Positions 11,956 through 59,597 of a stretch of 64,000 bases of DNA are shown piece after piece. This stretch comes from a virus (lineage: Duplodnaviria > Caudoviricetes). Each line of letters opens with the position of its first letter. Position 1 is the first letter of the stretch. Both the position numbers and the translations under genes were made by a program. Below the pieces are notes generated by a model, which saw only the letters and a list, made by a program, of their open reading frames with translations, was not told the origin of the DNA and did not search any database. Location of the stretch: the IMG/VR virus record IMGVR_UViG_3300031867_000006, positions 101,770 to 165,769 of that record; one strand, given 5' to 3'.

Positions 11956-13170
11956 TTAATTATTTTCTTTATCTTTCTTATCGACTATACGGCACATTAC
12001 TTTTCTTTCAGGTATATAATTTATATCATGACCTTCACGAACATGTCTTTCATACGCATTTACTTCATGAGGTATAAACATACATGTATCTTTACTATAG
12101 ACCTTATCCCAATTATCAACGCCTGGTTGTAGTGTATCTTTATCTAAATCATATTTACAACCAGCTTTCCATTGAGAGTAGCCAGGAAGTGATGGTAAGT
12201 CATCTATAAACTTTCTAAGATGAAGCCATTCTGGATCTACAGACACGCCGCCTTCTATACCAACTTCTTCTCCACACCCACCATAATCTTTAAATGCATC
12301 ACAATTTTCATTATAGCATCTACATAATACAGAATTCCATAACCTTGATTCCTTTGGATATTTAGCATATAATCCTGGTTCATCTAATATACCAACTCCA
12401 TATAATGTAGGTACTGAATGGTCTCTAATCATATTATTAACTATGCTGCTATAACTATATTCATATTCGTAACCAGTGTCAAATCTAACTTTAAAGAACT
12501 TACTTCTTCCCTTATTACCAACATATTCTAAAACTTTATAATGAATACCTTGACCATTTACATTCTCATAATCAACAAGCATTCTTTTATCGTGATCTTT
12601 AACATATCCGGATAAAATATTGAATTTTCTAGCAGTATCAAAATTACCGGTTTCTAAAAATTGTATCTTATATAATGGTGGATTTTTACTACCTTCTATA
12701 TATTCTATAACTTTAATTGGACCATCGCATCTACTCATATATTCACATCCAACTATTTCATATGGATCTACATTTTTATGACCATCACAACTAACCAATC
12801 CCTTTTGTATATTTGCTTTAGTTGCAATACCAGTGCCACCATTATCAAAAGTTACTTCATATTTATGCTGACCGTCTTTACCTAAATATCCAGTGACTGT
12901 AAATGGACCAAATACTTTACTTTCTCCTCGATGACCAACAAAGTCCAGCGGATTATTAACTTTATAGGTTATTCTCCCATTTTTAATATTATATTTATCT
13001 TTGCTAATTGGTGTTTGGCTAGGGTCTTCATCAAATAATACCATATAATAATGCTTTTTATCTGGATCTTTTCCTACTACTTTAAACTTACCTGCAGTTA
13101 AACTAACGCCTTCGTAATTTAACATTTCATCATCGTCACTTATTTGTACAATTTTTACTTCATTATTCAT
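11956..13170 (-). CDS. Free-standing homing-endonuclease-like protein with repeated N-terminal modules
   Basis: About four G.F.V..Y.G......Y.V.F.TG modules, then RCYN..C..F.DYGG.G...W..L..F...DLDKD...YSKDTCMF core shared with the intron ORFs. Confidence 0.7.
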   Translation of the reverse strand: MNNEVKIVQISDDDEMLNYEGVSLTAGKFKVVGKDPDKKHYYMVLFDEDPSQTPISKDKYNIKNGRITYKVNNPLDFVGHRGESKVFGPFTVTGYLGKDGQHKYEVTFDNGGTGIATKANIQKGLVSCDGHKNVDPYEIVGCEYMSRCDGPIKVIEYIEGSKNPPLYKIQFLETGNFDTARKFNILSGYVKDHDKRMLVDYENVNGQGIHYKVLEYVGNKGRSKFFKVRFDTGYEYEYSYSSIVNNMIRDHSVPTLYGVGILDEPGLYAKYPKESRLWNSVLCRCYNENCDAFKDYGGCGEEVGIEGGVSVDPEWLHLRKFIDDLPSLPGYSQWKAGCKYDLDKDTLQPGVDNWDKVYSKDTCMFIPHEVNAYERHVREGHDINYIPERKVMCRIVDKKDKENN

Positions 13171-13273
13171 ATTAAATTCCTCCTTAAAAATATTATAAGT
13201 ATTATAAACATGTTACATTATATGTATATTTTTACATTTATATTCATATCTTATAATAAGTAACGAAAATAGA

Positions 13274-13297
13274 CCCCTAGGCTATTACGCCTAGGGG
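13274..13297. terminator. CCCTAGG-family hairpin terminator after the capsid gene
   Basis: CCCCTAGGC-tattac-GCCTAGGGG; related hairpins at 3813, 20530, 20909, 32200, 45292, 49352, 53130 and 61661. Confidence 0.75.
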
Positions 13298-13332
13298 AAT
13301 TATTATAAAAAATAAATATATTATTTTTTATT

Positions 13333-15192: not shown

Positions 15193-15261
15193 GATATATA
15201 CCTCCTTATAAATTTTTTATCATGATTTAGGGGTGGTAACCTAAATATTATTATATTGTTA

Positions 15262-16308
15262 TTACTTTTCATCTTCTTTTTGCTTTGCAGAAGACTGTAT
15301 TAGCGTTTTTAATACCTCACTAATTTGCGATAGATACATGAGATTCATCTCATAATTCTCTTTATTCTGTATATACGTTCTCGTTACATAAGTCTTAGTA
15401 ATGGTATCGTTAAGTATCTCCTTAAAGTTGTCCAGATTCTTACCTAAGAAGTCTAGCGTTGCTATATTCTTAGCAGTCTTATCTATCTTATTAAGATCTT
15501 CAATGATAACACATACTGTATCATACATATCTATATAATTCCTAATAAGTTCTGCGTTCATTATAGCCAACTGAGCTGGTTCTAAATCCTGGAATAAATT
15601 CTTCTCCTGCTCTTTAGGATCTACTTCTCCTTCATCTTCTCCATCCATTCCAAGATCTTCAGTATCATCGTTATTATCAGCATCAGGATCATCATTGGTA
15701 GATCCAGTATCGTCTCCACCATCGCCCTCAGCATCCTCATTACCTTCTTCATCATCTATCCCTTCTGTATAATCTGTTCCTCCTCCGGCGCCATCATCTC
15801 CACCAGCTCCAGCACCATCGTCGGTATTACCTTCAGGAACATCACCATCGTTAGGATCGCCAGCATTATCATCACCAGTATCTCCATCATCGCCTGTATC
15901 ATCTCCTCCATCGTCATCGTCTTCTAAACCTTCTAAATCGTCAGTATAGTCAGTAGCTGTATCATTATCAGACCCTGCATCAGTATTATCAGTGTCTTCT
16001 CCAGCTTCCCCATCTTCACCGGCAGCTTCATCATTATCCTGCCCATTGCCGTCATCCCCATCAGTATTAGCGTTGTCAGTAGTGTTATCATCTACATTAC
16101 CGCCATCATTAGACTCTGCATTGGTACTAACAGTGCCATCACTATCTCCCCCACCTGCAGTATCGCCTCCATTATTTTCTTCTTCTGTATCATCATCTAC
16201 TCCTGCGGTGTAGTCGTTCTCGTCTTCATCTTCACGAGTATCTACACCATTTATTTCTAATTCTTGTAAAATTTCTAAATCGTTCATAGAGGAACTTCCT
16301 CCTTTCAA
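15262..16308 (-). CDS. Highly acidic scaffold-like protein
   Basis: About 230 aa of D/E/G/T low complexity plus helical C-terminus, directly upstream of the capsid gene. Confidence 0.55.
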   Translation of the reverse strand: MKGGSSSMNDLEILQELEINGVDTREDEDENDYTAGVDDDTEEENNGGDTAGGGDSDGTVSTNAESNDGGNVDDNTTDNANTDGDDGNGQDNDEAAGEDGEAGEDTDNTDAGSDNDTATDYTDDLEGLEDDDDGGDDTGDDGDTGDDNAGDPNDGDVPEGNTDDGAGAGGDDGAGGGTDYTEGIDDEEGNEDAEGDGGDDTGSTNDDPDADNNDDTEDLGMDGEDEGEVDPKEQEKNLFQDLEPAQLAIMNAELIRNYIDMYDTVCVIIEDLNKIDKTAKNIATLDFLGKNLDNFKEILNDTITKTYVTRTYIQNKENYEMNLMYLSQISEVLKTLIQSSAKQKEDEK

Positions 16309-16316
16309 TATGTTAA

Positions 16317-20937: not shown

Positions 20938-21105
20938 TTATTCATCTAATAATTCGACTACGTCTAATCCAGGTGATAAATTAATTCCTTCTTTATCATT
21001 AAATTCAAATATTTTATCCAAGAAATAGTTTATCCCTTCAACATATTCTTCTTTTACTTCAATAATAGTTTCCCGACCATCTATAACAACTCTGTACTTT
21101 CTCAT
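20938..21105 (-). CDS. 55-aa protein (not in ORF track)
   Basis: GGAGG RBS, ATGA overlap with the upstream ORF, ends at a hairpin. Confidence 0.6.
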   Translation of the reverse strand: MRKYRVVIDGRETIIEVKEEYVEGINYFLDKIFEFNDKEGINLSPGLDVVELLDE

Positions 21106-21269
21106 TTCCTATCCTCCACTATTCTACACATTGTTTTTCTCTGGTTCTTATCTTCTGGTATATGGATCTCTAAATCTATCTTTCCATCTCGTGTTTTATT
21201 GAAATCTATTGTAGTATTAGAGATTCTGTCAATAGTATTAATTACTTTCTTGAGTGTATCATTCTGCAT
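21102..21269 (-). CDS. 55-aa protein ending ...KNQRKTMCRIVEDRK (not in ORF track)
   Basis: Manual translation; tandem paralog of 21259-21432. Confidence 0.7.
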   Translation of the reverse strand: MQNDTLKKVINTIDRISNTTIDFNKTRDGKIDLEIHIPEDKNQRKTMCRIVEDRK

Positions 21270-21432
21270 CTTTATTGTCTCCTATGATATGACACATTGT
21301 TTTTCTCTGGTTCTTACCTTCAGGAATATGAACTACATCTATCCTGCCATCTTCTCTTTTTCTAAAATCTACGGTATTTCCAATAACTTTATCTATAAAT
21401 TCTGTTGCTTGCTCGAATATATTCTTATCCAT
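21259..21432 (-). CDS. 57-aa protein ending ...KNQRKTMCHIIGDNKDAE (not in ORF track)
   Basis: Manual translation; AAGGAG RBS; paralog of 21102-21269. Confidence 0.7.
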   Translation of the reverse strand: MDKNIFEQATEFIDKVIGNTVDFRKREDGRIDVVHIPEGKNQRKTMCHIIGDNKDAE

Positions 21433-22273
21433 TTATATTCTCCTTTCCTCCTACAATACACATTCTGTTTCTTGCTGCCTTTATTATAACGCCTACATAA
21501 TAGACATTATTTTTCTCATCATAATCATTTCTACATTCTAAATCGAAATATATATGGTTTAGTATTATATTTCTCTTCCACTCTATGAATTCTTCTACAT
21601 CTTGTTTTGCTATGCAAGAATTAGCCATTAATACCATAATTTTATTCTTAGTATTATCAGCATTCATATCTACTAATACAATCTTCTTAGTTGGATCTTG
21701 GCAAGCCTCCATCATATTGTGTTCTAAAGCCTTAATATGATCTTCAGATAAGAAGAATGATAGATTCAAGAATACCACTTCCATATAAGTCATTCTACGA
21801 TAGAATAAGCCTACATCATAACGCTGCATTGTATATGGATATTCCACACTTACATACTCAGACATATCTACACCAAATAGATTATGAATCTCATTAATAT
21901 GATTCGCTATGAATATATTCGTATGTACTTCCACAGGCGCTTCTATAGAGAACTGATATTCTGGATATTGCTTAGTATTATATCGCTCTATGATATACTG
22001 ATCTACATGATGTAATTCATGTAGTACTGTCATGACTATATATTGCTTATAAATATTATAGTCTGTTGGACAATATCTAAATCCAGCCATTGGAAATATG
22101 TAAACTATCCCGGGTGCTATACAGCATCCAGCTTCATTAGTTATATAATTACCCCTCCAATCTATTATAAGTTTAGCCTTGATTATATTATTAATCTTAC
22201 CATTATAATAATTAAATATATTTTTTATTAGCATTTCAATTTCATTCTGTTTTTCTATAATATCAAATTGCAT
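21425..22273 (-). CDS. HExxH metallopeptidase-like protein
   Basis: VLHELHH...E motif; class-1 promoter motif upstream. Confidence 0.6.
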   Translation of the reverse strand: MQFDIIEKQNEIEMLIKNIFNYYNGKINNIIKAKLIIDWRGNYITNEAGCCIAPGIVYIFPMAGFRYCPTDYNIYKQYIVMTVLHELHHVDQYIIERYNTKQYPEYQFSIEAPVEVHTNIFIANHINEIHNLFGVDMSEYVSVEYPYTMQRYDVGLFYRRMTYMEVVFLNLSFFLSEDHIKALEHNMMEACQDPTKKIVLVDMNADNTKNKIMVLMANSCIAKQDVEEFIEWKRNIILNHIYFDLECRNDYDEKNNVYYVGVIIKAARNRMCIVGGKENING

Positions 22274-23145: not shown

Positions 23146-23901
23146 CTACTCCACAATTCTGCACATTACTTTCTTTTTTCTTTCTTCAGCTCCTGTAGAT
23201 GATAAGAATCCTTCTTTAAAATATAATTTATTGGGACTATTTCTCTGTTGTCTTTCATGCTCTATATTGCCGTTTATATTCTGATAATTATATGGCACAT
23301 AATGACTACCGATATAATTAAGCATAGTCATCGCAGACAAACTCATGTTAAAATTCCTTATAAAATATAAGAACCCTAAGAATTTTTCGACTGGAACCAT
23401 AAAACTCATAACTTCACTATTTACATAGAAAATCACTCCAATTCGCTCGTATCCATCGCGGTCAGTGAATACAGTCGGTTCCATTGAAATATACCCATAT
23501 CTGAAATTCACTCTTTCTGAGTACTGCCTAACGGGTATGATTATATGGCCATCTTTTTTCGCAAACACATCTTGATCGCCAGTAAACCACTTCTCTACAA
23601 TATCCAGCTTATGCAAAAAGAAATACATATCATCTTGATATATCCTTAATTGATATCTTAATCCAGAACTATCTCTTTCAGAAGATTCTATCATTAAATA
23701 ATATACATACCTTCTATTAATCGTTATAGCAAATCCATTCTTATTATTATATCCATATTCAGAAACATAATTTCTAATACGATCATCTGTATCTTTAACG
23801 TTTAATTCAACGCAAAATTTCATATGCCATTTTGTAGTAAAATAATATACATCATCTTGAATCTTATTATAATCATTATGATTTATCTTTCGACTCATCA
23901 T
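23146..23901 (-). CDS. Hypothetical protein with C-terminal KVMCRIVE motif
   Basis: 251-aa ORF with GGAGG RBS. Confidence 0.75.
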   Translation of the reverse strand: MMSRKINHNDYNKIQDDVYYFTTKWHMKFCVELNVKDTDDRIRNYVSEYGYNNKNGFAITINRRYVYYLMIESSERDSSGLRYQLRIYQDDMYFFLHKLDIVEKWFTGDQDVFAKKDGHIIIPVRQYSERVNFRYGYISMEPTVFTDRDGYERIGVIFYVNSEVMSFMVPVEKFLGFLYFIRNFNMSLSAMTMLNYIGSHYVPYNYQNINGNIEHERQQRNSPNKLYFKEGFLSSTGAEERKKKVMCRIVE

Positions 23902-25504: not shown

Positions 25505-27034
25505 TTATTCTTTATAGACTCTCATACACATAACCTTCTTCTCTTTGTATTTCTTTTTAACCTTAAGGAACTGCTCTTCTATCTCTACATCAGATAGAGG
25601 TACATCCTTACAGGTTTTAGCATACTGTGAGAATACTGGTTTCTTAACCTTATAGTACTTCTTAGTAAAGTAGAATCCATTATCTACAATATCTATATAG
25701 AATGTATTATCGGCACGGCAACGACCAAGTGTCTGTCTGGCCAATACAGATGATCTAAATGGCTCAGCTAAGTTTATAGTACATTTAAGATCCGCTATAT
25801 CTTGGGCTGCACCACATGACTTAGTAGTGGATAAGATAATCTTTTTATATAGATTATACTCCTTATCTTCTTTATCAACTATAGATGTATATACACCCAC
25901 ATGGCGTTCTAAGAATGGGAAGTTCTCTACTATATATTCGTATGTTTTCATTACACCTTCATTCATGCCTATATAGACAAGAATCTTACCATCCATATTC
26001 ATCATCATATCTACTAATATGCAGACTATCTTATAATACACTTCTTTAGAAGTTATATATTTCACATATGCATTTCTATTGAATCCATATGCATTTGAGC
26101 AAGCCTGTATATCCAATGGTGTAGGATGAGAATTAAAATGCATAGCTATATAGTTTACATGAGGATCTGAATTAGGATCAAATAGAGATATAGAAGGTAC
26201 ATTCTTGAAATACAACTGATATATTGCATTCTCCTCATCATGAGATCTCTGTGGAGTTGCTGTAAGATAGAGCGTCTTTCTAGTATTAGAATGCATGTCT
26301 ATTCTGCTCATATTATCGAAGTATAAATGAGCCTCATCATATACTTTGAGCCCACATTGTAAATGAGCGAACAACTCATCTATTCTTTCCCATCCATGTT
26401 TATCACCGTATGACTTTATAGTCGAATGTGATACTAAGAACACCTGGTAATCTAATGGATCTCCACATAGTATTCTATCTACAGATACACTACCAGATAT
26501 CATATAAACATCTTTATCTAATAAAGGAGTGTATTCAAATATCTTCTCCCTCCACTGCTCTAGCCAGTTTATAGCACTGGTTATGATAATCATTCTAGAT
26601 CCTGTATAACACATCGCTGCTACAGTTAGAAATGTCTTGCCGGAACCTGTAGTCGTATTAACGCAAAGCTGACTCTTAGACTTGGTATATTGGTATTTGC
26701 CTTCACCGATAATGAATTTAAGAATCTCACTCTGTCTATCATCTCTAGTTAAATACTTAATTGGAATCTGGTCAGTATTCACATATGGATCAGGCTTTTT
26801 ATCTACCATAGGCGTCACGTTAAACATTCTCTCAAGATATGATATATCTATACCTCTAGGCAAAAAGAGCTTTCTCTTCTCTATATCATATTCAATAACC
26901 TTAACGTCGGTAGTATGTCGCATAGGATCATATATAGAAAACGTATATTCTAAGCTAGGACAATCACCTAAATCATAATCATTAACTTCTATCCTAGTAT
27001 GCTTTAAAACAATTTTAGGCTTAATCTTTTCCAT
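25505..27034 (-). CDS. Superfamily 2 (UvsW-like) helicase
   Basis: TTGSGKT, DEAH, TAT and QTLGRCR motifs. Confidence 0.9.
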   Translation of the reverse strand: MEKIKPKIVLKHTRIEVNDYDLGDCPSLEYTFSIYDPMRHTTDVKVIEYDIEKRKLFLPRGIDISYLERMFNVTPMVDKKPDPYVNTDQIPIKYLTRDDRQSEILKFIIGEGKYQYTKSKSQLCVNTTTGSGKTFLTVAAMCYTGSRMIIITSAINWLEQWREKIFEYTPLLDKDVYMISGSVSVDRILCGDPLDYQVFLVSHSTIKSYGDKHGWERIDELFAHLQCGLKVYDEAHLYFDNMSRIDMHSNTRKTLYLTATPQRSHDEENAIYQLYFKNVPSISLFDPNSDPHVNYIAMHFNSHPTPLDIQACSNAYGFNRNAYVKYITSKEVYYKIVCILVDMMMNMDGKILVYIGMNEGVMKTYEYIVENFPFLERHVGVYTSIVDKEDKEYNLYKKIILSTTKSCGAAQDIADLKCTINLAEPFRSSVLARQTLGRCRADNTFYIDIVDNGFYFTKKYYKVKKPVFSQYAKTCKDVPLSDVEIEEQFLKVKKKYKEKKVMCMRVYKE

Positions 27035-27887: not shown

Positions 27888-30086
27888 TTATTCTTTTGTT
27901 TTGTCAACAATTCTACACATTACAACTTTGGTATCTCTGTCTTGAATGCCAGTGTTGGAATGGTCGATATACATGTTGTCTTCCATATATATCTGGGGCT
28001 GCTCCATGAAGAACAGATCAAAGAAGCTAGGCTTATTCTTAGCGAATGTAAGAGGATTATACATCACTCTGTTAAGATCCTTATACAGCAAGGATATAAT
28101 TACGCTCTGGTTATTAGCTAATGATCTATTCAATGTCAGTAACTTGTACTGTACTCCAGGATCAGCCCAATTAGGCTTATCAAGCATATTATCTGCAGCA
28201 ACAATCTGGTTAGCTAAGATAACCTCAAGATGTACAGAATCAATATTCAAGTTACCATCTATTACAAGATCTACAAGCCTCTGCATAGCCTCATCAATAT
28301 CCATAGACTCGGTTACGTCTGCTTTATTAATAAGATGCATGATATCCATCATAGCCTTGGAGAGCTCATTATTGTTAATCTTAATATAGAACAGCACGTC
28401 TTCTGCAATACTGCTCAGCGGAATGTTTACCAATCCATCATCATTTGTAGCTCTGCGTCTGATTCTATCATTAAGATAGCTTGTTATATAGAGATTATCA
28501 TCAGATTCAGACTTGAAAAGGATTTCCTGACCATCAGGAGTACGAATATAGAACTTAGTAATGTACTCATTATAGATGGTTGTTTCAGCATCCTCATCAC
28601 TCTTAACGGAATCCTCCTCCTCGCTAACAAGACATACATCATCTGGATTAATAAGCATTACATACTTGCCTAAGTTAGGAACGTCCTCCAGATTAGATGA
28701 TAATGATATAGCGTTGGCTTCAATATCGAAATACTGTTCGAACTCTTCATTCCAGACTATCTCGACAATCTTAGTCTCCAATAGATGTTTTGCTGAAAGA
28801 AGTCGCTGGGTTAGCATAGCCGACAGGAGTTCCGCAGCAATCTTACCAACGTTGATATCATTATTGATATAATAAAGATCTCCATAGCACTTGGAACAGA
28901 TACCTCTATTGTTAGACATACTATTGCATGTCATAGGCGAATATAAATATATCGTCTTACCGAGTAATGTGATATCATACTCATTAACAACATGATCCAT
29001 GCCATTAGGGTTGAATCTATAATATCTGTTCTTAATCATAGACAGATGCTTCTTACTCTTGATGGTAAACTTAATTGGTCTACGAGTATTGCATATATAA
29101 TTAGGGTTCGGATTTAATATAGTATCCGTATTATTCAACCCCATAATTCTAGCCATATCACCGGAATCACCGACATACTCTTTCGACATAACCTGTGCAG
29201 TACGAGCTGTAGATGACTCTATAAATAGAGCTATAGGGCTATTAACACCACCATTACTGAATGACTGTCTAATTACATATGGAAATACTGTATCATAAAT
29301 AGACTTAGTACCAATGTTTACTCGGGCTTCTTTAAACTGACGTTCATTAATAGCCTCAGACGCTTTGAATGAGTTCGTTAAGCCATGTTCATAACCGATA
29401 AGCTTCTTAGAATTCTTGATATAATTGATTACTTGCGATGCAGTGTTCTGACCCTCATCTTTTACATTATTAAACTGCACGTCTTCATAGGTTCTATTAA
29501 GCAATGCAGCATACTCAGGATACTGCTGCATAAGAGCAATATCATCCTCATTGTTTATAGTATTAGCAAGGTAATAAGCAAAGTCCTCTACCATACTATA
29601 ATTCCAAGTACCATCCTCAATAACCTCATTAAGCACGTACTTACCGAATCTCTTTTTCTTATCAGTATCTAAGATATACTTATCTATGAAGTCCTTAATA
29701 TTACCCCTTTTAAGCTCCATATTCCAGAATATATGCTTAGGCCTGATCTGTTCATTTACTTTGAGTAACATAGACCACATAAAGAGATTAAACCAGTAGT
29801 CTATAATGCTTAGGTTACACCATTTACCATCTCCCCAATCGATACGATACTTAGTAGTCTCAATATACTCAGTATTAATACCATCCTTGAGAATTGCGGA
29901 TATAGCCTGAATGTGATCATCAATATTATGGCTATTAATATCCTTCGCAGGATTAATGGTGAAGCTTGTTAAGTTTCTTATAGCTTCTTCATACACATAA
30001 TAATTACGATAGTTCTGTAGGGGCTCTTCCTCTACAATGTTAAACATTTCTGTAGTTACCATAATTCTTAGTCTCCTCAAATACAA
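27888..30086 (-). CDS. Phage multisubunit RNA polymerase beta' subunit, C-terminal half
   Basis: YSPMTC....GICSKCYG zinc site, NVGKIAAELLSAMLTQRLLSAKH (trigger-loop region), SVHLEVI. Confidence 0.85.
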   Translation of the reverse strand: MYLRRLRIMVTTEMFNIVEEEPLQNYRNYYVYEEAIRNLTSFTINPAKDINSHNIDDHIQAISAILKDGINTEYIETTKYRIDWGDGKWCNLSIIDYWFNLFMWSMLLKVNEQIRPKHIFWNMELKRGNIKDFIDKYILDTDKKKRFGKYVLNEVIEDGTWNYSMVEDFAYYLANTINNEDDIALMQQYPEYAALLNRTYEDVQFNNVKDEGQNTASQVINYIKNSKKLIGYEHGLTNSFKASEAINERQFKEARVNIGTKSIYDTVFPYVIRQSFSNGGVNSPIALFIESSTARTAQVMSKEYVGDSGDMARIMGLNNTDTILNPNPNYICNTRRPIKFTIKSKKHLSMIKNRYYRFNPNGMDHVVNEYDITLLGKTIYLYSPMTCNSMSNNRGICSKCYGDLYYINNDINVGKIAAELLSAMLTQRLLSAKHLLETKIVEIVWNEEFEQYFDIEANAISLSSNLEDVPNLGKYVMLINPDDVCLVSEEEDSVKSDEDAETTIYNEYITKFYIRTPDGQEILFKSESDDNLYITSYLNDRIRRRATNDDGLVNIPLSSIAEDVLFYIKINNNELSKAMMDIMHLINKADVTESMDIDEAMQRLVDLVIDGNLNIDSVHLEVILANQIVAADNMLDKPNWADPGVQYKLLTLNRSLANNQSVIISLLYKDLNRVMYNPLTFAKNKPSFFDLFFMEQPQIYMEDNMYIDHSNTGIQDRDTKVVMCRIVDKTKE

Positions 30087-30255: not shown

Positions 30256-30346
30256 CCAGTCTGGACTGGAGTCGAACCAGCAACTATAACAATCTTTTCT
30301 GCACGCCGAAAATGATTGTTCGCTTTCCCAATTAAGCTACAGACTG
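30256..30346 (-). tRNA. tRNA-like element with elongated anticodon arm; identity not assignable
   Basis: Acceptor CAGTCTG/CAGACTG, D arm GCTT/AAGC, T arm GCTGG-TTCGACT-CCAGT; anticodon arm has 12 bp and an 8-nt loop; no encoded CCA. Confidence 0.6.
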
Positions 30347-31212: not shown

Positions 31213-32187
31213 ATGCCGTTTAAACACAAAGGAGGCATAATTATGCCGAAAGGTTACACCAAGCACTTGAATGGTTGCGGAGCAGTCGTTCCAGGTGCTA
31301 TCTTAAAAACAAATAAATCAGGAGATTTTAAAGTACTCCGTCAATGTGCGGAGCATGAAAAAACTTGGACCAATGGTCGTCCAGGTTATGAAATCGAGTT
31401 CTTAAATGTCAACGTATTAGGTGGTCATACCAGGATGATTGTTGATAAAGATAGAGCTTCTAGGGGATATATAAAAGATCCTTATCAGGCTACGGTTTAT
31501 GGAGTAGCATGTCCTGGAAGAGCAGTTACTAAGATCAATGGTAAGCATACTAGAGAATACTCAGTTTGGAGTGGCATGATATCTAGATGCTATAATACTG
31601 GAGATCCTAAGTTTTCATCATGTGGTTATCGCGGTGTAACAGTATGCCGTCGTTGGTTATGTTTTGAATTCTTCTGTCAGGATCTTCCAAATATACCAGG
31701 TTATGAAGAATGGTACAATGCTGATGTACTTACATATGATTTCGATAAGGATATGCTTCAGCAACATCTACCTCCTCATCAGAGAGTTTATTCTCCTGAA
31801 ACATGCATGTTCTTAACACAGCATGAAAATAGAAGTATAAAGAAGTATTCTGGTGATGATAAGATTAAGCCTCATACAAATGATGAGATTAGACCTTATG
31901 ATGCTGATAGATATTTATACCCTTATCCAGATGGATCATTCTATGAGGGTTACTACTATAAATGTAGCGTAACCTATCTTGGAGAAACTGTACCGTTAGG
32001 AACATTTACTAGCCTTGAAGCTGCACATATAGTTCATAATAACTACGTGAGAATTAAAGGTTTACCTAATGTACCGTATACCATTAATTCTAATATGACA
32101 CTTGCTGAAGCAGTAGCTTGTAGAACTCCTGAAAGTAGAGCTAAAGATCTAAAACAAATGTGTCATATAGTAAATAAAAACAACTGA
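31213..32187 (+). CDS. Free-standing homing-endonuclease-like protein
   Basis: WSGMISRCYN....GYRGVTVCRRWLCFEFF.QD...DFDKD...YSPETCMF; AP2-like C-terminal segment (LGTFTSLEAAH). Confidence 0.75.
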   Translation: MPFKHKGGIIMPKGYTKHLNGCGAVVPGAILKTNKSGDFKVLRQCAEHEKTWTNGRPGYEIEFLNVNVLGGHTRMIVDKDRASRGYIKDPYQATVYGVACPGRAVTKINGKHTREYSVWSGMISRCYNTGDPKFSSCGYRGVTVCRRWLCFEFFCQDLPNIPGYEEWYNADVLTYDFDKDMLQQHLPPHQRVYSPETCMFLTQHENRSIKKYSGDDKIKPHTNDEIRPYDADRYLYPYPDGSFYEGYYYKCSVTYLGETVPLGTFTSLEAAHIVHNNYVRIKGLPNVPYTINSNMTLAEAVACRTPESRAKDLKQMCHIVNKNN

Positions 32188-40157: not shown

Positions 40158-43100
40158 ATGTATGCTCAGCAAATGCCTGGTTACATGGCACAAATGCAGA
40201 TGCAAAACGGAGCTGCTTTCGGGCAGAGACCTATGATACCGGCGAGAGCTCCGACACCTATAAAGACTATATACTCTCAGAAAACTACTAAGAATAAATC
40301 ATTCTTAGAGATGCATTATTTTCTAAAGAGTATTGGAATAAAGAATAATGAATTTATGCTAGCTCTTATCGATCCTGACTTAGATGGGATCGATCCATAT
40401 GATCCGAATCTAAATGGAATATATAAGCAGAAGGTCCTCAGAGAAGTGATGACCAATTATTGGTACTTCTTGAGGGAAGTTGTGCGTCTTCCGAGTGCGG
40501 GTGCTGCTCCAATGAGATATAAACTAGATAGATCTAATCTAGCTTATAACTTCTGTGCATCACTTAATCTTAATATATTCCTAGAAGCGCCAAGGCTAAC
40601 TATTAACCCTATTATTGAAGTGATTCAGTAATAGAATTTCTTTTAATTGCTGGGAAAGGCTAAAGTCTAAATTCCTATAATGGTGACGAAAGTCAGAAAC
40701 AATTTTAGAATAGTTTAATGGTGAAATACAAGCCTTATTTAAGGTCCTAAAAACTAATAAATGTCTAATCAGCAGCTAAATTATTTTTTACCGAGCTGTC
40801 TACAATAACGTAATAGGAGGTATTACGTTATGATTAATATAGATTTTAATAAGATTTATCATACAAAATCATATGGAGATTTCAAAATAATAGAAAATCT
40901 TGGATATATTAATGGAGACAGCAGATTGTGGGTTAAGATTAAATTTTTAACTACAGGTTATGAACGAATTATTAGACAAGATCATCTATATAGACCAAAT
41001 CTTGATATACAAGACCCATATTATCCAAGAATATTTGGATGTGCTTGTATGGGAGAAGGAGTTGGTGCTAGAGATGAATATAAACCAGACTATGATAGAT
41101 GGCTGAAAATGGTATCTAGATGTAGAAATGAAGAAGATAAAGATTATCCTAGATATGGATTGATTGGCGTTGATGTTGATGAAGAATGGTTGACATTTGC
41201 TAATTATTATCATGATATAAAGGAATTGCCTGGGTACAGATTTAAACAAGCATATCCACAAAAATTCCAATTGGATAAAGATTATCTACAATATGATGTA
41301 CCACCAGAAGAAAAGATCTACTCTAAAGATACTTGTATATGGGCGGAAAAGTCTATTAATTCTAAAATGACAAAAACAAATACACATGAAATACCAGAAA
41401 TAGATTATGTTGATCGTCAGGGCAATCCAAAACGTATGACAATGTGTAAAATAATTTAGTTCAACGACTATCCATTTGACCAGGCGTATAAATATGGTCT
41501 ACAGGAGTAGGGCTCAAGCGAGCGGGTGAGATCCCCTTAAATCGAAATGAAGAACCCTCTTAATAAGAGGTGAAGATATAGTCTCGACATCCAGAGAAAT
41601 ACTGGAGATGTATTTAATACATGCATGAAGTAGCGACTCATGTTAAGATAACGAGGTTGGGAAGACTATTGGTGCGGCAATAAGATACCTCTATTGCTAT
41701 AACTTTGCGTCTTCCAACAGTAAAATGGCATTTCTCCATAAAAATATGGAAGGTTCTACAGATAACTTGGAATCTCTTAAGCAAATAAGAGATTTATTGC
41801 CAGATTACTTACAATTTAAAGAAAAGGTTGGTATTGATGGTAAAGTAGATCGCGGTAGGAATAATACTAGAGATATACAGAATCCTTATAACAATAATAG
41901 CATAAAGACATTTGCTTCAGCAACAAATAAAACAAGAGCTGCATCTCTGCTTCGTGGTAAAACCCTTGTAATGATCTGGTTCGATGAGTATGCATTCATA
42001 CCATTTAATGATACAATATATATCAATTCGGCACCAGCATATAAGACAGCGAGGGATATCGCAAAGCAGAATAATGCATCGTACGGCATCTTAATCACTA
42101 CAACGCCTAAACAAACCTGGGCATTCACAATCGAAAGATTGTGTCTAATTTCTCGGAATTGCTGGAAAGTGCTAAAACTTCTATGCCTTAATGGAGTTGA
42201 AAGACGGAAACAAGTTAGAAGATTAATCAATGGTGAAATAAAAGCTTATTCAAATTTAGCCAGCTTGAATAGGTCCTATAGATTAAATAGTAATGTGCTA
42301 TCAGCAACTTAATTATATTAAGTTCAACGACTATCCTTATATAGGAGTAGGGCTAATAAGCTCGAAGTAGAGAACACCTAAGTCTAGATATAGATATGGT
42401 GATGATATAGTCTAATCCGCTAATAAATATCGGTAACCCGACGGTAATTACAATCCTAATTTATGGGGTTTATGGCTCAACCAGAGGCACAGGTCGCGTA
42501 TGCTGAAAAAGAGGCTGCGACTAAATTCTCTGAGTCTTGGTATGATAAATCATATCAGGAGATTATGAGTATCATAAATGTAAATAAGCATTCCGACTTT
42601 GTATATATAAAATTTACTTATCAGCAGCTTGGTAAGTCTGAGCAATGGTTTGATGAAGTATGTAAGCTTTTGCATAATAAATGGCCTGACATTCGAAGAG
42701 AGATTCTTCTTGAGTGGGCTAACGGTGTAGAGAATTCTCCTTTCGATCCTGATGATTTAGAGACTATTTCCGGTCTTTTGAAGCAACCTATAAGCGAAGT
42801 GTATTTGCTTGGTAAATATAGGTTCGAAACTTATATGCAAGCAGATACTAGAACGTATCCGGCAATTATAGGTGTCGACGTTGCTGCTGGTTATAAGAAA
42901 GACAGTTCCTGTATTACAGTTATTGATTCATTGAGTACTAAAGTATTAGGCTGTCTAAATTGCAATTATATTTCGACTGTAGATCTAGCAAGATGTGTCG
43001 AATTCATTGTAAAGAATTGGATGCCCACAGCGATAGTAGCTGTTGAGCGCAATGGTGAGCGTACCCAATGCGTACGTTGAGACGTATTGGTTATCAACAC

Positions 43101-44921
43101 AGTTAGTAGAGTAATCTGCTAATTCTCCCGTGTTAAAACTGCGACTAATCGGTCAAGAGCCTTACAGCTAAATTATATTTAGTAGCGAAAGCAGAAACAA
43201 GTGTAAGGATGGTAGTATGGTTAAATCCTATAGCTACTATTAACAAGCCGACGTGCAGTTACGAATTTAATATACTAACTTCTAATTAATACCATTTATT
43301 ACGTTAATAAAAATGCATTAATTAGGAGGTTGCACATGTTCAAACAAATAAAAAATTATGGTGGAGGAACTTATTATATTAATGAATCTGGAATAGTAAT
43401 GAATAAAAACGGCCATGTAATGAGAAGCGCAAAAAGTGATAATGGGTATTTAAGAACTTCATTAGAAGATCCAATTACCCATAAACGTAAAAACCTTTCT
43501 ATACATAGATTGGTTGCTGAAACTTTTATTCCTAATCCAGATAATTTGCCAGTTGTTATGCATAAAGATAATGATTCATTAAATAATCATGTATCTAACC
43601 TTAAATGGGGTACTGTTAGTGAAAATACTAAACAGGCATATGAAGACGGTAGAGCAGTTTCTCCAAATAAAGGCGTACATCGCACAAATAAATACCAAGT
43701 ATATAATGAAGAACTTAATGATTATATTACTTGTGATTGCAGAACAGATGTTGCTGAATTAATCCAATATGCTGAGATAAGTCTTAAAAATATGGTAGGT
43801 AATGATAGAGAAATAGCTCTTGGACCATACAAAGGTTATAAAATTAGGCGTAAAAAAGAAATGTGCAAAATAAAAACTAAAAAGAAAAAGTATATTAAAA
43901 CGTTTAACGACTATCCTTTAGCGAAGGAGTAAAACCGCAAGTTAATGGCGGAAGAAAAATACGGCTCCTCTTACTATAATAAGAGGATGGACATATAGTC
44001 TGATCATATCCTGTAATGGGAATGTGTGGAAGTGACCACAGTATATAGAGTTGCGTCTATATATAAACAAAAAATGTTGGCGCGCCAGTGGTGGCTATGC
44101 TTAATAAGATGGGTCTTAAACGTAATATGTATTATGAGATTAAGGACAAAGTCTTAGAAGAACGCCAAGACGGGGTTAGAGCTTACAAACAAAAAGTAAG
44201 AGTAAAAGAATTTGGTATTCACAGTACGGCTGCCATTCGTAAGATCTTAATAGATATACTTATAGATAGAGTAGAGCATCATAAAGATAAGATTATATCA
44301 CCTATAATATATAATGAGCTTCTTGGTATGGAGATCAAAAAGGGTGGTAAAGTAGAGCATTCTGATAATACCCACGACGATCAGATCTTTAGTATGCTCA
44401 TGGCATTGTATGTATGGTATGAAGGCGTAAACTTAGCAGAACGTTATGGTATACGCAAGACTACCATTAAGACAGATGAAGACATTGATGAAGAACTTAA
44501 TATCTATGATAGCAATACTGTAGAGATAGTCGAGCATTTCAATGTAGAGACTCCTCTTAATGAAGAGATTCAGAGAGATATAGATGCTCTTATGAAAGCT
44601 CATGGTATTACATTAGATGAGTTCTTAGAGAAGAGACATAAAGAAGAGCAGGCTCAATATAGAGCTTTACTCAATACACCGCTTGGGCAAGAAGCATATC
44701 GCCAGCAATATAATATTCCTAAAGATATTCCTATAGAGAAATTTGTTGGTGATGCTAGCGAAACAGCCATACCAGATTCTGTATTTACATCATTCTATGA
44801 TTCTGATAAGATCTTTGGTGCATCAGATGATGAATATGGTGAAATAGATATGGGACCTAGAGCTGTGCCTGCTGGTGAAGCAATGAATAATCCTACATAT
44901 AGAAGCAGGTTTAATTTTTAA
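40158..44921 (+). CDS. terL: Terminase large subunit; four exons 40158-40596, 41654-42108, 42466-43056 and 44076-44921 (~776 aa)
   Basis: Splicing restores Walker A APRQVGKT, ITTTP|GFM and VERNG|VGAP; Walker B WFDEYAF, nuclease IGVDVA and THDD; exon total of 2331 nt is in frame; last junction +/-1 nt. Confidence 0.9.
40597..41653 (+). mobile_element. Group I intron 1 of terL, with endonuclease ORF
   Basis: AATTGCTGGGAA, AATCAGCAG, GTTCAACGACTA, GATATAGTCT; terminal G. Confidence 0.88.
40830..41459 (+). CDS. Intron-encoded homing endonuclease
   Basis: WLKMVSRC....DYPRYGLIGVDV..EWLTFANY..D...QLDKD...YSKDTCIW. Confidence 0.8.
   Translation: MINIDFNKIYHTKSYGDFKIIENLGYINGDSRLWVKIKFLTTGYERIIRQDHLYRPNLDIQDPYYPRIFGCACMGEGVGARDEYKPDYDRWLKMVSRCRNEEDKDYPRYGLIGVDVDEEWLTFANYYHDIKELPGYRFKQAYPQKFQLDKDYLQYDVPPEEKIYSKDTCIWAEKSINSKMTKTNTHEIPEIDYVDRQGNPKRMTMCKII
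42109..42465 (+). mobile_element. Group I intron 2 of terL, ORF-less (357 nt)
   Basis: P1 GCCT/GGGC with U-G pair; AATTGCTGGAAA, TATCAGCAAC, GTTCAACGACTA, GATATAGTCT; ends ...TTATG. Confidence 0.88.
43057..44075 (+). mobile_element. Group I intron 3 of terL, with HNH ORF (ends +/-1 nt)
   Basis: TTTAACGACTA and CATATAGTCT P7 elements; interrupts VERNG|VG. Confidence 0.8.
43330..43932 (+). CDS. NUMOD4/HNH homing endonuclease (I-HmuI-like)
   Basis: IHRLVAETFIPNPDNLPVVMHKDNDSLNNHVSNLKWGTVSEN. Confidence 0.9.
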   Translation: MHMFKQIKNYGGGTYYINESGIVMNKNGHVMRSAKSDNGYLRTSLEDPITHKRKNLSIHRLVAETFIPNPDNLPVVMHKDNDSLNNHVSNLKWGTVSENTKQAYEDGRAVSPNKGVHRTNKYQVYNEELNDYITCDCRTDVAELIQYAEISLKNMVGNDREIALGPYKGYKIRRKKEMCKIKTKKKKYIKTFNDYPLAKE

Positions 44922-53100: not shown

Positions 53101-53167
53101 TATTTTGTACAAGTTGTGTGCTTTGACGGCTCCTAGGGAGAAATCCCTAGGAGTTCATTTTGTCTAA

Positions 53168-54092
53168 TACGCCGATAATAAATCCATCATCAGAATCCAA
53201 GTCTAGATCAATACCATATGATCTAAATAAACCAAGGCTTGCTCTATATTGTTCAGGTAATATTTGTACACAAGTCCATCTATGATCCCATCCAATACCT
53301 CCTCTTGTACTGCTTCTAAACCACCAATGACACATCGCCGACATTAATATTAGGAAATGATTGAGCAGTAGCCCATTCGATATAATGACTTTGATAGCCA
53401 TAATGTATACAAAAACAACCTAGAGCTCTATTATCAATTCTATCTTGCGAATTAGCAGATCTATTCCACCAAGCCATCGCCGTAATTTATATTACCACCT
53501 CTATTAGCAGCCCATTCCCAATGAGGACCAATTATTGTATTAGCAGAATCAACATATGTAGCACCAAATGATATAATTTGATCGTCATATCCATTATTAT
53601 GCGTTACAGCATTCCTATACCAAAAACTCATCGCCGACATATCTTATACCATCAACACCATTCTCATGATGATGTGCAAATTGAACATTGGTTAAACCAC
53701 TAGTGAAGCATTCAACAAAAGCCATTAATGCATAATTATAACCTATATTATGATCATTATTTGGACCGGATCTGAGCCACCAGCCCATCGCCGATGCCAT
53801 CTTTCCATAAACTATGACCAGAAGTACCATCAGCATTCCAATAAGATTCCCCATTAGGATTTATCCACCCACAAAATTGTACTTTTATATTAAATTTATC
53901 ATTATTACAAGCAGATCTACAATAATATCCACACATCGCCGATATTATTTTTATAATCAAAAAAGGTATATCCAGTATTAGCATAACTAACATCACCCGT
54001 TCTTTGTATGTCTCCAAAACATGTAAATTTTTCTTGTTCATAATCATTAGTAGGATTAGATGATCCTGATCTTAACCACACCCTCATCGCCG
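53168..54092 (-). repeat. Cassette array 1: six CGGCG(ATG)-delimited coding cassettes
   Basis: CATCGCCG on + at 53333, 53475, 53629, 53786, 53934 and 54085, terminal TACGCCG at 53168; unit lengths 151, 148, 157, 154, 142, 166. Confidence 0.92.
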
Positions 54093-54100
54093 AAAAGTTA

Positions 54101-54126
54101 CCCAGAGTGCACAATGGCACTCTGGG
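54101..54126 (-). terminator. Hairpin terminator between the portal gene and array 1
   Basis: CCCAGAGTGC-acaatg-GCACTCTGGG. Confidence 0.75.
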
Positions 54127-54157
54127 AATGATAAAGTAAGGTATATGAAAAAAGCAT

Positions 54158-56560: not shown

Positions 56561-56628
56561 AATGGGATACTCCTTTCATTGAGATATTAATACGCAAGGT
56601 ATTAATCAAATGTTTTCAGAAGGAATAA

Positions 56629-56979
56629 TTACTCCATTGTATATGCAGCAAAATAGCTGGAAAGATCCTTATTATGCTCATTTATAATCTTCTTAGCAAC
56701 ATCTTTAGGTACTTCTTTCATAACTTTGAACTGGTCATCATTAAAGTGCCATATTCTCATATTTGCTGGTGTATCAAGATGTGAGCCTAAAAAGCTAAAC
56801 TGCTGTACATATATAAATTCACTTAGATCCTCATCCTTACCAAAGCTAGGGTTCTTACATTTAAATACGTAAGCACCGCTGGGCAATTCATAAACTTTAT
56901 TTACTTTCATATATCCTCCATTTCCGCTAGCTTGCATACCATTCATATTGTTTGCAATGAGTGTTTTCATTAGATGCAT
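56629..56979 (-). CDS. Hypothetical protein
   Basis: True start likely MKVNKVY after GGAGG (~56910). Confidence 0.6.
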   Translation of the reverse strand: MHLMKTLIANNMNGMQASGNGGYMKVNKVYELPSGAYVFKCKNPSFGKDEDLSEFIYVQQFSFLGSHLDTPANMRIWHFNDDQFKVMKEVPKDVAKKIINEHNKDLSSYFAAYTME

Positions 56980-57048
56980 ATGTATTGGAGCCGAATATTT
57001 ATATATAAATAGGGTTACAAAAAATAATAGCGGAAGTATAAACCTCCG

Positions 57049-57684
57049 CTATAATTTAAGATATGATATATAAATATATACGTTAAGCTTTTTCTTTATT
57101 CTAAATCTAACCTGATATGTAGGCCCATTATTATCTATTACAGATATAAATAGCTTATCAGTCTTATTTAAAGCGAATAGATTATAGAATAGGGTCATAA
57201 AATAACGACCTCTATGGACGTAATACATTGGCCCGCTACTCTTGCGCAATCCATAAAGATCCTTAAGCTCTTCAGTAACGTCTTCTTCTTTGAGATCCCA
57301 TTCTGATTCTACTCTATTATCTATTGCAGCCAGCTCATTTAATCTACCTAATATAAAATTGGTAATAGTATTATTTTTTCTGACTGTACAGATATTGTCT
57401 TTGGCTACAGACTTTAGAGTATTCTCATATCTAGATTCATCAATCTCAAATTCAGACTCTATACTAAGCTTGCTAATGAAAGAGCTCAGCTCTCTTGTAC
57501 CAAAGATTAATCCCACACCTAACGGTATTCCGCTTAGTCTATCAGGATTAATCTTAACTCTACAAGAATAAACCTTATAGTTATCCAATCCGATTACGTT
57601 ATTATTAATAAACATGAAGCTTTGGTTCTTAATATATTTCCCAGCCTCATTAATAACAACCAGATCGCTTAATGTTAAGACCAT
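57049..57684 (-). CDS. Hypothetical protein coupled to the DNA polymerase N-terminal subunit
   Basis: Overlaps the polymerase stop; GGAGGTG RBS. Confidence 0.7.
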   Translation of the reverse strand: MVLTLSDLVVINEAGKYIKNQSFMFINNNVIGLDNYKVYSCRVKINPDRLSGIPLGVGLIFGTRELSSFISKLSIESEFEIDESRYENTLKSVAKDNICTVRKNNTITNFILGRLNELAAIDNRVESEWDLKEEDVTEELKDLYGLRKSSGPMYYVHRGRYFMTLFYNLFALNKTDKLFISVIDNNGPTYQVRFRIKKKLNVYIYISYLKL

Positions 57685-59597
57685 GACATCACCTCCGTGG
57701 AAGGCATCTTGTCGACTTTAACACACATATTTCTCTTCTTAGTATTATCTACTATATGGCACATTGTTCTTTTCTGCTTATTATTAATATTAATACACAT
57801 AATCTTCTTACCATTACGATTAGAATAATACAATCCCTTCATAGGATTTTTAATCTTCGTAAAGTAGTCTATTATGCTATTATACATCTCCTCATATGTC
57901 GGTAAATTAAGATATCTATTACAGAAATCCAATCTATTATGAGATACGAGATCCTCAATAAACCATACAGATCTATTGAAATATGGATTATTAAATCTAT
58001 CTTCTTTACTATCCAACTTGTTAGGCAGCAATATCTTACCCAATTGGGTTGCCGGCGACATATTTGATTCATCGATGATATTTGGATACAACGCGCGATA
58101 ATCGAAGTCATCTAAATTATCCAAAATGTTAATAGGTCTGCCGTTCAGCTTACGCTTTGGCTTGGCTGAGACAAAAATTGGGTTCGCTACGTAGGCGCCG
58201 GCGAACCCAACTTTTCCATTGTTCTTATTTATATTATTGCCCATCACATAGCCTTGCGGTTGCATTTCCCAAAAGTCTTTAATTCCACGATTAACAAGAT
58301 ACGTTGTCTGTCTATGAACTTTAGCGAATCTTGTGTTAGTAGCTAATGCTTTACTAAATAAGAAGCTAAGATCTCCAACCTTCTTATCTATACATAACTG
58401 CACGATAGTATCACAAACATTATAAAATGCAAACGTTTTATATGATAATCTTGGTAATTTAGCAATATCATCAGTTATATGACTATAATCAAGCTTTCTA
58501 ACACCAGCCACCACATCGCCTATAAAATCTAATTTGAATGATGTAATTCCACCCTTCTTTTGACCTTTCCTGCGTGACGCAAATAATATAAGCTGATCTA
58601 TATACACAGTATATGAACTAACCTGTCCATAATCTCCACGTTCTTCAAACTTCTGTGCTCTTTTGTCAATATAATACCAACATTCTTGAGTGCGGAAGTC
58701 TGGATGACAGATTATTTCACATGGATCGTAACCTAAGATTTTAATACGTTCTATTAGGTATGGAAGGTCGAATGCGATATTCCATGCTACTGCAAATTCA
58801 GGTTTAATAGTATTAATAACTTTAAATAGATCTGTTATTAATTTAATCTCATCTTCATATAGCATTATAGAATATTCATATTGATCTAAACCATATTCTA
58901 ATTCCTTCTTCCATCCACCGACATTTTCTCTAACAAATGCTTTCAATTCATCTGTTATTCCAGGTGTCTCTATAAATGGATGTATCTGGAAATTATCCTC
59001 ATCATCTAATAGAAGTACATATACTTTTTTATTCTTAGTATCTATTAGAGTTACTGCGTTGACTGGACATTCTCCAGGTTCCGGGAATGTACCTCGCATA
59101 TTAACGATATCAGCCTCGATATCGAAGAAGACTACATCTGGTTCATATGGTTCATTTCTATATAATCTATCGAACTCCATTCTATAATAATCTTCTATAT
59201 GCATATCTGCATTAAATATGGTTGGTATTGTAAAGAGTTTATCATTCTCTTTATAATTACCACTCTTTAGATTATCAAAGAAGAAGTTTAGATTATCTGT
59301 TTTAGCAGCTATATCCTTCTTTAAGTCTCTATATTTACACTCCACAGGATGAACTTTCTCTTTCTCTATACATAACTGTGGAGTCGGCACTCTAACATTC
59401 GCATTAGCCATATAATAAGTATAATTCGGTGAGACTATATGCTGAACTTTCTTTTGCCCAGTATCCAAATCTTTAAATACTATATCTATAGAATCATTAG
59501 TCCAACCGCCCTCACCATCTCTCTGGCTTTTATGATAAATTGCGTTTATTATTGTTATATTTGCTCCAGGTTCATAACCTTTAATTCTGAAAGGCAT
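57675..59597 (-). CDS. Family B DNA polymerase, N-terminal subunit (3'-5' exonuclease plus motif A)
   Basis: FDIEAD (ExoI), WNIAFDLPYL (ExoII), YNVCD (ExoIII), DFDYRALYP (motif A). Confidence 0.9.
   Translation of the reverse strand: MPFRIKGYEPGANITIINAIYHKSQRDGEGGWTNDSIDIVFKDLDTGQKKVQHIVSPNYTYYMANANVRVPTPQLCIEKEKVHPVECKYRDLKKDIAAKTDNLNFFFDNLKSGNYKENDKLFTIPTIFNADMHIEDYYRMEFDRLYRNEPYEPDVVFFDIEADIVNMRGTFPEPGECPVNAVTLIDTKNKKVYVLLLDDEDNFQIHPFIETPGITDELKAFVRENVGGWKKELEYGLDQYEYSIMLYEDEIKLITDLFKVINTIKPEFAVAWNIAFDLPYLIERIKILGYDPCEIICHPDFRTQECWYYIDKRAQKFEERGDYGQVSSYTVYIDQLILFASRRKGQKKGGITSFKLDFIGDVVAGVRKLDYSHITDDIAKLPRLSYKTFAFYNVCDTIVQLCIDKKVGDLSFLFSKALATNTRFAKVHRQTTYLVNRGIKDFWEMQPQGYVMGNNINKNNGKVGFAGAYVANPIFVSAKPKRKLNGRPINILDNLDDFDYRALYPNIIDESNMSPATQLGKILLPNKLDSKEDRFNNPYFNRSVWFIEDLVSHNRLDFCNRYLNLPTYEEMYNSIIDYFTKIKNPMKGLYYSNRNGKKIMCININNKQKRTMCHIVDNTKKRNMCVKVDKMPSTEVMSWS

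Follow-up and report, generated by a model that had tools for sequence, protein, structure and literature searches.

The tag and its carriers in the window

The window considered here is the whole stretch of DNA that was analysed, i.e. the final 64 kb of a 165,769-bp IMG/VR virus record (guanine-cytosine (GC) content 36%, CheckV completeness 59%), and the element in question is a short peptide (hereafter the tag) that recurs in this phage close to protein C-termini with the consensus [KR]-x-M-C-[RHK]-I-V-[DE]. As the record is only 59% complete, it represents only part of a jumbo phage genome. The window encodes a C-terminal piece of the beta' subunit of RNA polymerase (RNAP), a superfamily 2 (SF2) helicase, a family B DNA polymerase (PolB) split into an N-part (PF03104) and a 'divergent PolB' C-part (PF20286), a GroEL-like chaperonin (519-2246), capsid, protease, sheath and endolysin genes and many HNH endonucleases. 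The closest named phages are Bacillus AR9, PBS1 and BpSp together with Staphylococcus S6-like phages (protein identity below 30%), and the gene order RNAP beta' C-piece, hypothetical gene, helicase is common to the record and to AR9 (g154-g156). Close uncultured relatives (53-62% identity, contigs of 200-300 kb) are numerous in metagenomes, those of pig gut included, and one of them (G001: 265,692 bp, 98% complete, GC 29%) is used below for comparison.

The 15 peptides named in the original prediction, which had proposed the tag as a targeting or docking signal of DNA-acting proteins, were all found in the open reading frames (ORFs) given there, and four further carriers were located elsewhere in the record (genome positions 3116 minus, 26170 plus, 60586 minus and 97592 minus, the last reading MVRIVK). 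In the window 14 ORFs bear the peptide near their ends, in 16 copies, to which the internal copy of the polymerase C-part adds one. Counted from the stop codon, the tag Met stands at a distance of 5 to 29 residues, and a variable stretch of 0 to 24 residues follows the tag. Across 197 called ORFs (50,699 residues), the core pattern M[CV]x[IVR][IVKEG] was matched 16 times in the tails (i.e. the last 45 residues) as compared to a mean of 0.45 in per-protein shuffles (maximum 3 in 300 shuffles), and 2 times inside proteins as compared to 2.2 expected, one of the internal matches being a conserved hairpin of the polymerase. The C-terminal enrichment that had been anticipated for the proteome is thus borne out, tails being enriched and interiors not, and the shuffles rule out a chance origin of the tag.

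As synonymous codons differ among the copies (TGT/TGC, CGT/AGA, ATA/ATT/ATC and GTN), selection acts at the level of the peptide and not of the DNA; a DNA-level motif (promoter, terminator or mobile element end) was rejected on the ground that synonymous positions vary freely between copies. Two further readings, one of the Met-Cys step as an intein or split intein and one of the tag as a CaaX-like signal, were likewise discarded, since the Cys is not conserved and only 4-12 residues come after it. The emphasis first laid on this cysteine as the key residue had to be abandoned, as relatives have Val, Ile, Ala or Tyr in its place, and therefore a Cys-centred chemistry (or an experiment with a Cys mutant) would miss the point.

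Carriers in the record comprise five HNH endonucleases from two unrelated PHROG families together with an HNH-like protein (phrog_12252), the SF2 helicase, the RNAP beta' C-piece, the PolB N-subunit (three copies), three proteins of 50-57 residues, a 129-residue post-primase protein and three proteins without a family match. Within the window (the tag Met codon being the upper coordinate of each minus-strand interval and the lower coordinate of each plus-strand one), the tag MCRIV stands on the minus strand at 11983-11997, in the HNH endonuclease ORF 11956-13170 (phrog_2081), 13 residues before the stop and in the context INYIPERKVMCRIVDKK. Further along the same strand, MCRIV (21117-21131) ends a 55-residue micro-ORF (21102-21269) and MCHII (21283-21297) ends its 57-residue paralogue (21259-21432); these micro-ORFs look like tiny beta-sheets closing with the tag. 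Also on the minus strand, MCIVG (21449-21463) ends a 282-residue ORF (21425-22273) with an HELHH motif and no family match, and MCRIV (23152-23166) ends a 251-residue ORF (23146-23901), again with no family match. The HELHH of the former conforms to HExxH (zincin-like), and the G001 orthologue of this carrier is without the tag. The SF2 (ResIII/DEAD) helicase (25505-27034) closes with the variant VMCMRVY (25517-25531, minus strand) and the RNAP beta' C-terminal piece (27888-30062) with MCRIV (27906-27920, minus strand); a single tRNA, barely at the Rfam threshold (29.2 bits), lies at 30257-30345 (minus strand), with the RNAP piece on one side and the next HNH gene on the other.

On the plus strand, MCHIV (32158-32172) ends the HNH endonuclease 31213-32187, MCKII (41442-41456) directly precedes the stop of the HNH endonuclease 40830-41459, which is situated amid terminase pieces, and in the HNH_3 endonuclease 43330-43932 a degenerate copy, MCKIK (43861-43875), precedes the stop by 23 residues. 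The remaining copies belong to the polymerase region of the minus strand: an internal tag-like hairpin, KRVMCHIEE (37215-37229), in the PolB C-part ORF (36288-38150, PF20286); MCKIV (38229-38243) at the end of a weakly HNH-like 179-residue ORF (38223-38762) between the polymerase exons; and the tandem tags MCINI, MCHIV and MCVKV (57714-57800, Met codons at 57800, 57764 and 57728), which the PolB N-subunit (57675-59597) bears in its tail at a spacing of 12 residues. The designation of three tagged ORFs as intron-encoded fared less well than the tags themselves, the Rfam group I intron matches (41323-41605 and 42098-42433) remaining below threshold (25 bits vs. a cut-off of 50). A shared stretch, GTTCAACGACTATCC (TTTAACGACTATCC in one copy), occurs at 38190-38222, 41457-41480 and 43915-43935, after endonuclease ORFs and overlapping the end of the third; as the polymerase C-part and the terminase lie in pieces in this region, divergent introns may be present there.

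Distribution, conservation and dialects

The expectation that structural proteins would be free of the tag agrees with what was found, as it is absent from the ORFs identified as capsid, protease, sheath, chaperonin, endolysin, terminase pieces and virion structural proteins. Its counterpart, that the tag marks DNA-acting proteins, held for many of them and failed for the primase, a 1449-residue fused RNAP beta subunit, the reverse transcriptase, RtcB and the dUTPase. The tagged RNAP beta' C-piece is homologous to g154 of AR9, a subunit whose annotation is non-virion RNAP, and the carriers of G001 additionally include a DnaB-like helicase and a second RNAP beta piece (two copies). RNase H, a separate 221-residue protein (genome 1285-1950), is probably a carrier too: its tail has a tag-like TMCSYVI, and that of its G001 counterpart NVCRYVI.

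Directly downstream of RNase H lies a gene for a 332-residue protein (genome 223-1221, minus strand) with a low-complexity N-terminus of about 110 residues rich in Q, N, Y, G and P, which precedes a helical domain. This conserved protein counts 25 homologues but matches no family and nothing in the PDB or the Atlas, and it could be a condensate-forming scaffold. Gene 1 beside RNase H was rejected as a clamp, being low-complexity plus helical and without a PDB or Atlas match. A different kind of protein end, acidic and aromatic (..EDFFNF, ..IFDMVDFA, ..FFGELFY, ..NSILF, ..GLQFF), was observed outside the window (L004:13852-17357 and L003:2301-3044); three of the proteins that bear it match virion or internal-head families, and it may represent a second class of shared tail. 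One protein with such an end, of 247 residues and adjoining RNase H, could be similar to a single-stranded DNA-binding protein (SSB).

Orthologues in more than 100 uncultured relatives retain the tail; the tag is a real, peptide-selected and clade-wide feature. In 120 homologues of the RNAP beta' C-piece (53-62% identity), the folded domain closes with ...PSFFDLFFxEQPQxYM and is succeeded by a poorly conserved linker, a conserved island (I-x-D-P-E-K-G-I-E-M-[V/C/I]-K-I-V-D-K) and a non-conserved end rich in Lys and Glu, the position of the Cys being occupied by Val in 40 homologues, by Cys in 37 and by Ile in 21. The helicase orthologues bear the tag as VMCMRVY or VVCNRVF, and the tail is furthermore retained in the relatives' helicase, intron HNH, HNH-like gene 5, 50-residue protein and post-primase gene (loci including L002 and L010-L012), with two tag copies in some RNAP and HNH tails. 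On the other hand, AR9, which among the cultured relatives examined is the nearest, has no tail on g154 (RNAP beta' C-piece), g156 (helicase) or g132 (PolB-N). The record has a dUTPase gene outside the window (L003:4939-5472, phrog_135, E 2e-35); because uracil-DNA phages are without dUTPase by the criterion of Iyer et al. (PMC7824862), this phage, in spite of its relation to AR9 and PBS1, probably does not use uracil DNA.

Genomes of the clade differ in the dialect of their tags. In this genome the tag reads x-M-C-[RK]-I-V, and in G001 [LV]-A-[IC]-K-[RV]-V (e.g. LAIKRV): the M-C pattern has 16 tail matches here and none anywhere in G001, while the A-I pattern has 9 tail matches in G001 (0.53 expected) and none here. 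For five orthologous pairs (helicase, RNAP piece, gene 5, the 50-residue protein and the post-primase protein), the Met of this genome corresponds to Ala or Val in G001. An M-Y form was seen in a subset of RNAP tails and, separately, in the polymerase tail of locus L032. Two ORFs of G001 (at 134189 and 195085) start with the tag, as M-IVIKRVKKDE.. and MKESQLAIKRID.., and may be read-through tails of upstream endonuclease or exon frames, or else N-terminal tags.

The polymerase follows the same dialects at an internal position. The PolB-C hairpin, some 45 residues after motif C, is conserved in orthologues (KRVMCHIEE here, KRVMCEIVE in L010, REMCEIVE in L011, KRKAIEIVE in G001 and RTVAEVVE in L012) and its dialect shifts with that of the tails, being MC in this genome, L010 and L011, AI in G001 and VA in L012. 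The tandem tags of the PolB N-subunit, 10-14 residues apart, number three here and in eight of nine distinct relatives, and two or three in L012, which suggests avidity.

We regard the in-step change of the tails as the most telling result of the analysis: judged from the sequences, a concerted change of some twenty unrelated tails is what would be expected if one reader recognised them all. Since all carriers of a genome switch dialect together, we hold a single shared reader to be likely. The proposal that the tag docks on a hub is supported by the variable linker, the clade-wide conservation, the tandem copies and the switching in step, whereas the identity of the hub is one that we infer below.

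The idea that no dedicated reader exists, and that the tails zipper with each other or with the polymerase hairpin by means of beta-strands, meets the same observations differently. The recurrence of the element as an internal PolB-C hairpin that covaries with the tails, the frequency of tandem copies and the resemblance of the micro-ORFs to tiny beta-sheets ending in the tag would all suit it, but homotypic strand pairing rarely yields such sharp position-specific conservation, and every carrier would stick to every other. We know of no precedent for homotypic zippering of such tails, and consider this explanation very improbable.

A clamp-fold protein as candidate reader

The candidate that we put forward as reader is encoded at 57049-57684 (minus strand), by a gene for 211 residues whose ATG lies 10 nucleotides inside the end of the PolB N-subunit gene and which has a GGAGGTG ribosome-binding site. 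Its family counts 99 representatives at 50% clustering. An AlphaFold2 model of the protein, built on an 86-sequence alignment, has a predicted local distance difference test (pLDDT) value of 95.9 and a predicted template-modelling (pTM) score of 0.90, and displays the beta-alpha-beta-beta-beta repeats of a clamp; every top PDB match retrieved with it by Foldseek is a sliding clamp (prob 1.0). By VIA-align, the model reached Z 9.0-10.4 over 182-195 of the 211 residues to 9-1-1, PCNA, T4 gp45, herpes simplex virus (HSV) UL42 (Z 9.0-9.2) and the beta clamp, and among viral proteins and in the Atlas its neighbours are clusters of PCNA, gp45 and the beta clamp, as well as proteins that carry a ribonuclease H annotation in phages Noxifer and RP12. 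On the strength of this model we confidently predict that the protein folds as a clamp of the PCNA/gp45/UL42 type. The clamp models of Pfam (PF09116, PF00712, PF02916 and PF00705) did not match it, tblastn against 50,697 cultured phage records returned no match, and neither the tag nor this gene was found described in the literature searched.

A clamp had been among the hubs guessed at originally, and the guess has thereby gained a concrete candidate. That this protein binds the tag, together with all the functional consequences considered below, is what we infer from circumstantial links (gene linkage, the triple tags of PolB-N, fast divergence, the tag-like end of RNase H and the list of clients). 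In every relative read (nine distinct ones for the gene pair, located partly via a degenerate DNA pattern), the start of the 211-residue gene overlaps the stop of PolB-N. The protein is 29% identical to its G001 counterpart, as compared to 57-62% for polymerase, helicase and RNAP, which places its gene among the least conserved shared genes of the replication module; such fast divergence fits a reader that drifts alongside its tags. At the position of the clamp-fold gene AR9 has a DnaQ-like gene (g131), with no sequence homology to the 211-residue protein, and we counted the joint absence of tails and clamp-fold gene from AR9 in favour of the clamp as reader. For experiments AR9 was discarded as a proxy, its tails being missing and the gene after its PolB-N being DnaQ-like and not clamp-like. 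Short stop-free units that close with ..YGD[GDE]L[VL].. form arrays on either side of the polymerase-clamp region (53168-54092 and 59702-60611), with tails in the ORF list such as NYGDGLVE, GDGLVAQ, NYGDVVLD and FGDDLVV.

The explanation that we tentatively favour, and to which we would assign somewhat less than an even chance when taken as a whole, is that the tag serves for docking as a short linear motif, which probably makes up the second strand of a small beta-hairpin and is borne on a flexible C-terminal linker by proteins that work on replicating phage DNA. Its clients would be PolB-N (three tandem copies), PolB-C (one internal copy), the SF2 helicase, the beta' C-piece, probably RNase H, the small or unassigned proteins and every HNH homing endonuclease and, in G001, also the DnaB-like helicase and the second RNAP piece. 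One partner would read all the tags, and our best single guess for it, put forward with similar caution, is the clamp-fold protein at 57049-57684, which would act as a PCNA/gp45/UL42-like platform for processivity and recruitment on phage DNA. The peptide pocket of this protein would accommodate the tags in the manner of PCNA-interacting-protein (PIP) boxes and of the C-terminal peptides of T4; tethering of the RNAP could couple late transcription to replication, as in T4, and homing endonucleases bearing the resident dialect would be brought to replicating phage DNA. The list of clients resembles, by analogy, the interactome of PCNA or of T4 gp45.

Several points weigh against this explanation. 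The tag is unlike the PIP box (Qxx[LIM]xx[FY][FY]), QL[SD]LF and the gp45-binding peptides of T4 (it has no Gln and no aromatic pair), and DnaB-like helicases and homing endonucleases are not classical clients of clamps. The 211-residue protein has no detectable sequence homology to phiKZ gp155 (Rhc; hhalign probability 0.1%). No clamp loader was found with PF13177 in this record or in G001, and the sole good AAA+ gene here (PF00004) has no G001 counterpart, so that, with no conserved loader, a closed and loaded ring is doubtful. Moreover, 40% of the gene set lies outside this 59%-complete record, and many other clade-specific and equally fast-evolving proteins could be the reader. One job co-folding the 211-residue protein with the RNAP tail (both as alignments) gave a score of 0.01, the partner's own fold being uncertain in it, and speaks neither in favour of binding nor against it.

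Much of the evidence would serve equally well a docking tag with a different reader, such as another phage protein (SSB-like, DNA-coating or encoded in the unseen 40%) or the beta clamp, SSB or ClpX of the host, because what argues for a single shared reader does not discriminate between readers. The completeness of the record (59%) leaves room for such a protein, and the shifts of dialect could track shifts of host (GC 36% here vs. 29% in G001); the clamp motif QEMIVP of Bacillus subtilis MutL and the SspB tail LRVVK vaguely resemble the tag. However, tags within a genome are far more uniform than known bacterial clamp-binding motifs, no alternative candidate stood out, and the position of a clamp-fold gene beside the triple-tagged polymerase subunit would have to be a coincidence, for which reasons we consider a different reader rather unlikely. 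The gene between RNAP and helicase, and its neighbouring genes, gave no matches, and searches of candidate hubs against the PDB by sequence retrieved nothing; the SH3-fold protein found near phiKZ-type polymerases (Iyer et al.) was discarded, phmmer with phiKZ gp047-051 revealing no homologue here or in G001.

An extension of the clamp-based explanation would be a lineage-private 'password', in which a fast-evolving clamp platform forms, together with about 20 client tails, a co-evolving code that homing endonucleases must copy, the dialects fence off the machinery and selfish nucleases of co-infecting relatives, and the clamp couples the phage RNAP to replication; we regard this scenario in its entirety as unlikely.

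Alternatively, the tag may serve as an address by which proteins are let into a compartment or condensate where the phage DNA is kept. Two unrelated HNH families of selfish homing endonucleases carry the resident dialect, which suggests that the tag is needed simply to get to that DNA. The fused RNAP beta subunit of the virion type is without the tag, and the conserved protein beside RNase H has an N-terminus (about 110 residues, Q/N/Y/G-rich) of the condensate-forming kind. The entry into a phage nucleus that had been envisaged at the outset is not supported for the chimallin type, since PF25677 had no match at E<=1 in this record, in the 98%-complete G001 or in G002, and import into a compartment found no positive support. 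Phages of the AR9 type are moreover placed outside the nucleus-forming family (PMC13282480), the abstract of a study on chimallivirus import (10.64898/2026.09.21.753271) reports import factors and subunit interactions and no linear signal, and an internal copy in a folded polymerase is hard to explain as an import signal. We consequently hold an address function to be improbable.

Least probable of all, and to our mind hardly credible, is a degron for timed removal or a handle for the GroEL-like chaperonin at 519-2246, for although the tag has a hydrophobic core with basic flanks near the C-terminus and the phage encodes its own chaperonin, the 0 to 24 variable residues that follow it and the one internal copy show that it is not read from a free carboxyl end, the AR9 orthologues are tail-less, a 50-residue protein and small endonucleases are unlikely clients of a chaperonin, and triplication on an essential polymerase subunit would be odd for a degron.

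Significance and comparison with known systems

Jumbo phages that encode their own multisubunit RNAPs had been considered to be without a sliding clamp (Iyer et al. 2021, PMC7824862), and a clamp-derived domain, fused to RNase H, was found in the nucleus-forming branch only in late 2026 (PMC13648698; 10.64898/2026.09.30.755723). If the tag is read by a free-standing clamp-fold protein, an uncultured gut clade would reveal a full clamp interactome in such phages, with the split polymerase, two helicases, RNase H, subunits homologous to the non-virion RNAP of AR9 and homing endonucleases as clients. This would bear on how late transcription is tied to replication where the phage supplies its own RNAP, and on whether selfish endonucleases need the address of their host phage in order to home. 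The genome-wide switching of dialects would offer a clean natural case of a hub that co-evolves with many ligands and, whatever its mechanism, the tag can serve in practice to pick out replication and transcription proteins from the many genes of these phages that have no annotation.

The nearest functional parallel is the gp45 clamp of T4, which is bound by C-terminal peptides of gp43, gp33 and gp55; two structures of gp45 with a peptide, 1B77 and 6DRT, are among the fold matches. Both systems would have one phage clamp-fold protein of about 210-230 residues and C-terminal peptides on the polymerase and on transcription proteins and, if the tag is read by the clamp, late transcription would in both be linked to replication. 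They differ in that the tag is unrelated in sequence and that no clamp loader was found in this phage, in their clients (here the phage's own multisubunit RNAP subunits, two helicase types, RNase H and many homing endonucleases), and in the three tandem copies and one internal copy of the polymerase and the genome-specific dialects seen here. With PCNA and its PIP boxes, and with the bacterial beta clamp and QL[SD]LF, the proposed system would share a one-pocket hub that engages many DNA enzymes via a short peptide near a terminus, as well as typical clients (RNase H, nucleases, helicases and polymerases). The consensus is a different one, however, and whereas those motifs vary within a genome and are stable between lineages, the tags behave in the reverse manner.

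Two preprints of 2026 show that in chimalliviruses a split polymerase is accompanied by Rhc, an RNase H fused to a clamp-derived domain; Rhc attaches to this polymerase, and subunits of the non-virion RNAP come down with it in pull-downs (PMC13648698; 10.64898/2026.09.30.755723). The division of PolB into N- and C-parts, the clamp-derived accessory protein and the ties to RNase H and non-virion RNAP are features that our system would have in common with it, and the proteins annotated as ribonuclease H in Noxifer and RP12, which the 211-residue fold matches, we read as Rhc-type. In contrast, RNase H (221 residues) and the clamp fold (211 residues) are separate genes here, the latter has no sequence homology to phiKZ gp155, and chimallin was not found in this phage; furthermore, Rhc grips the polymerase by a large surface, and no shared peptide tag has been described for it. 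Finally, UL42 and UL44 of herpesviruses offer a precedent for a loader-free clamp-fold protein that grips a C-terminal peptide of the polymerase, although there the arrangement serves a single client and not, as the tag would here, a family of tagged proteins.

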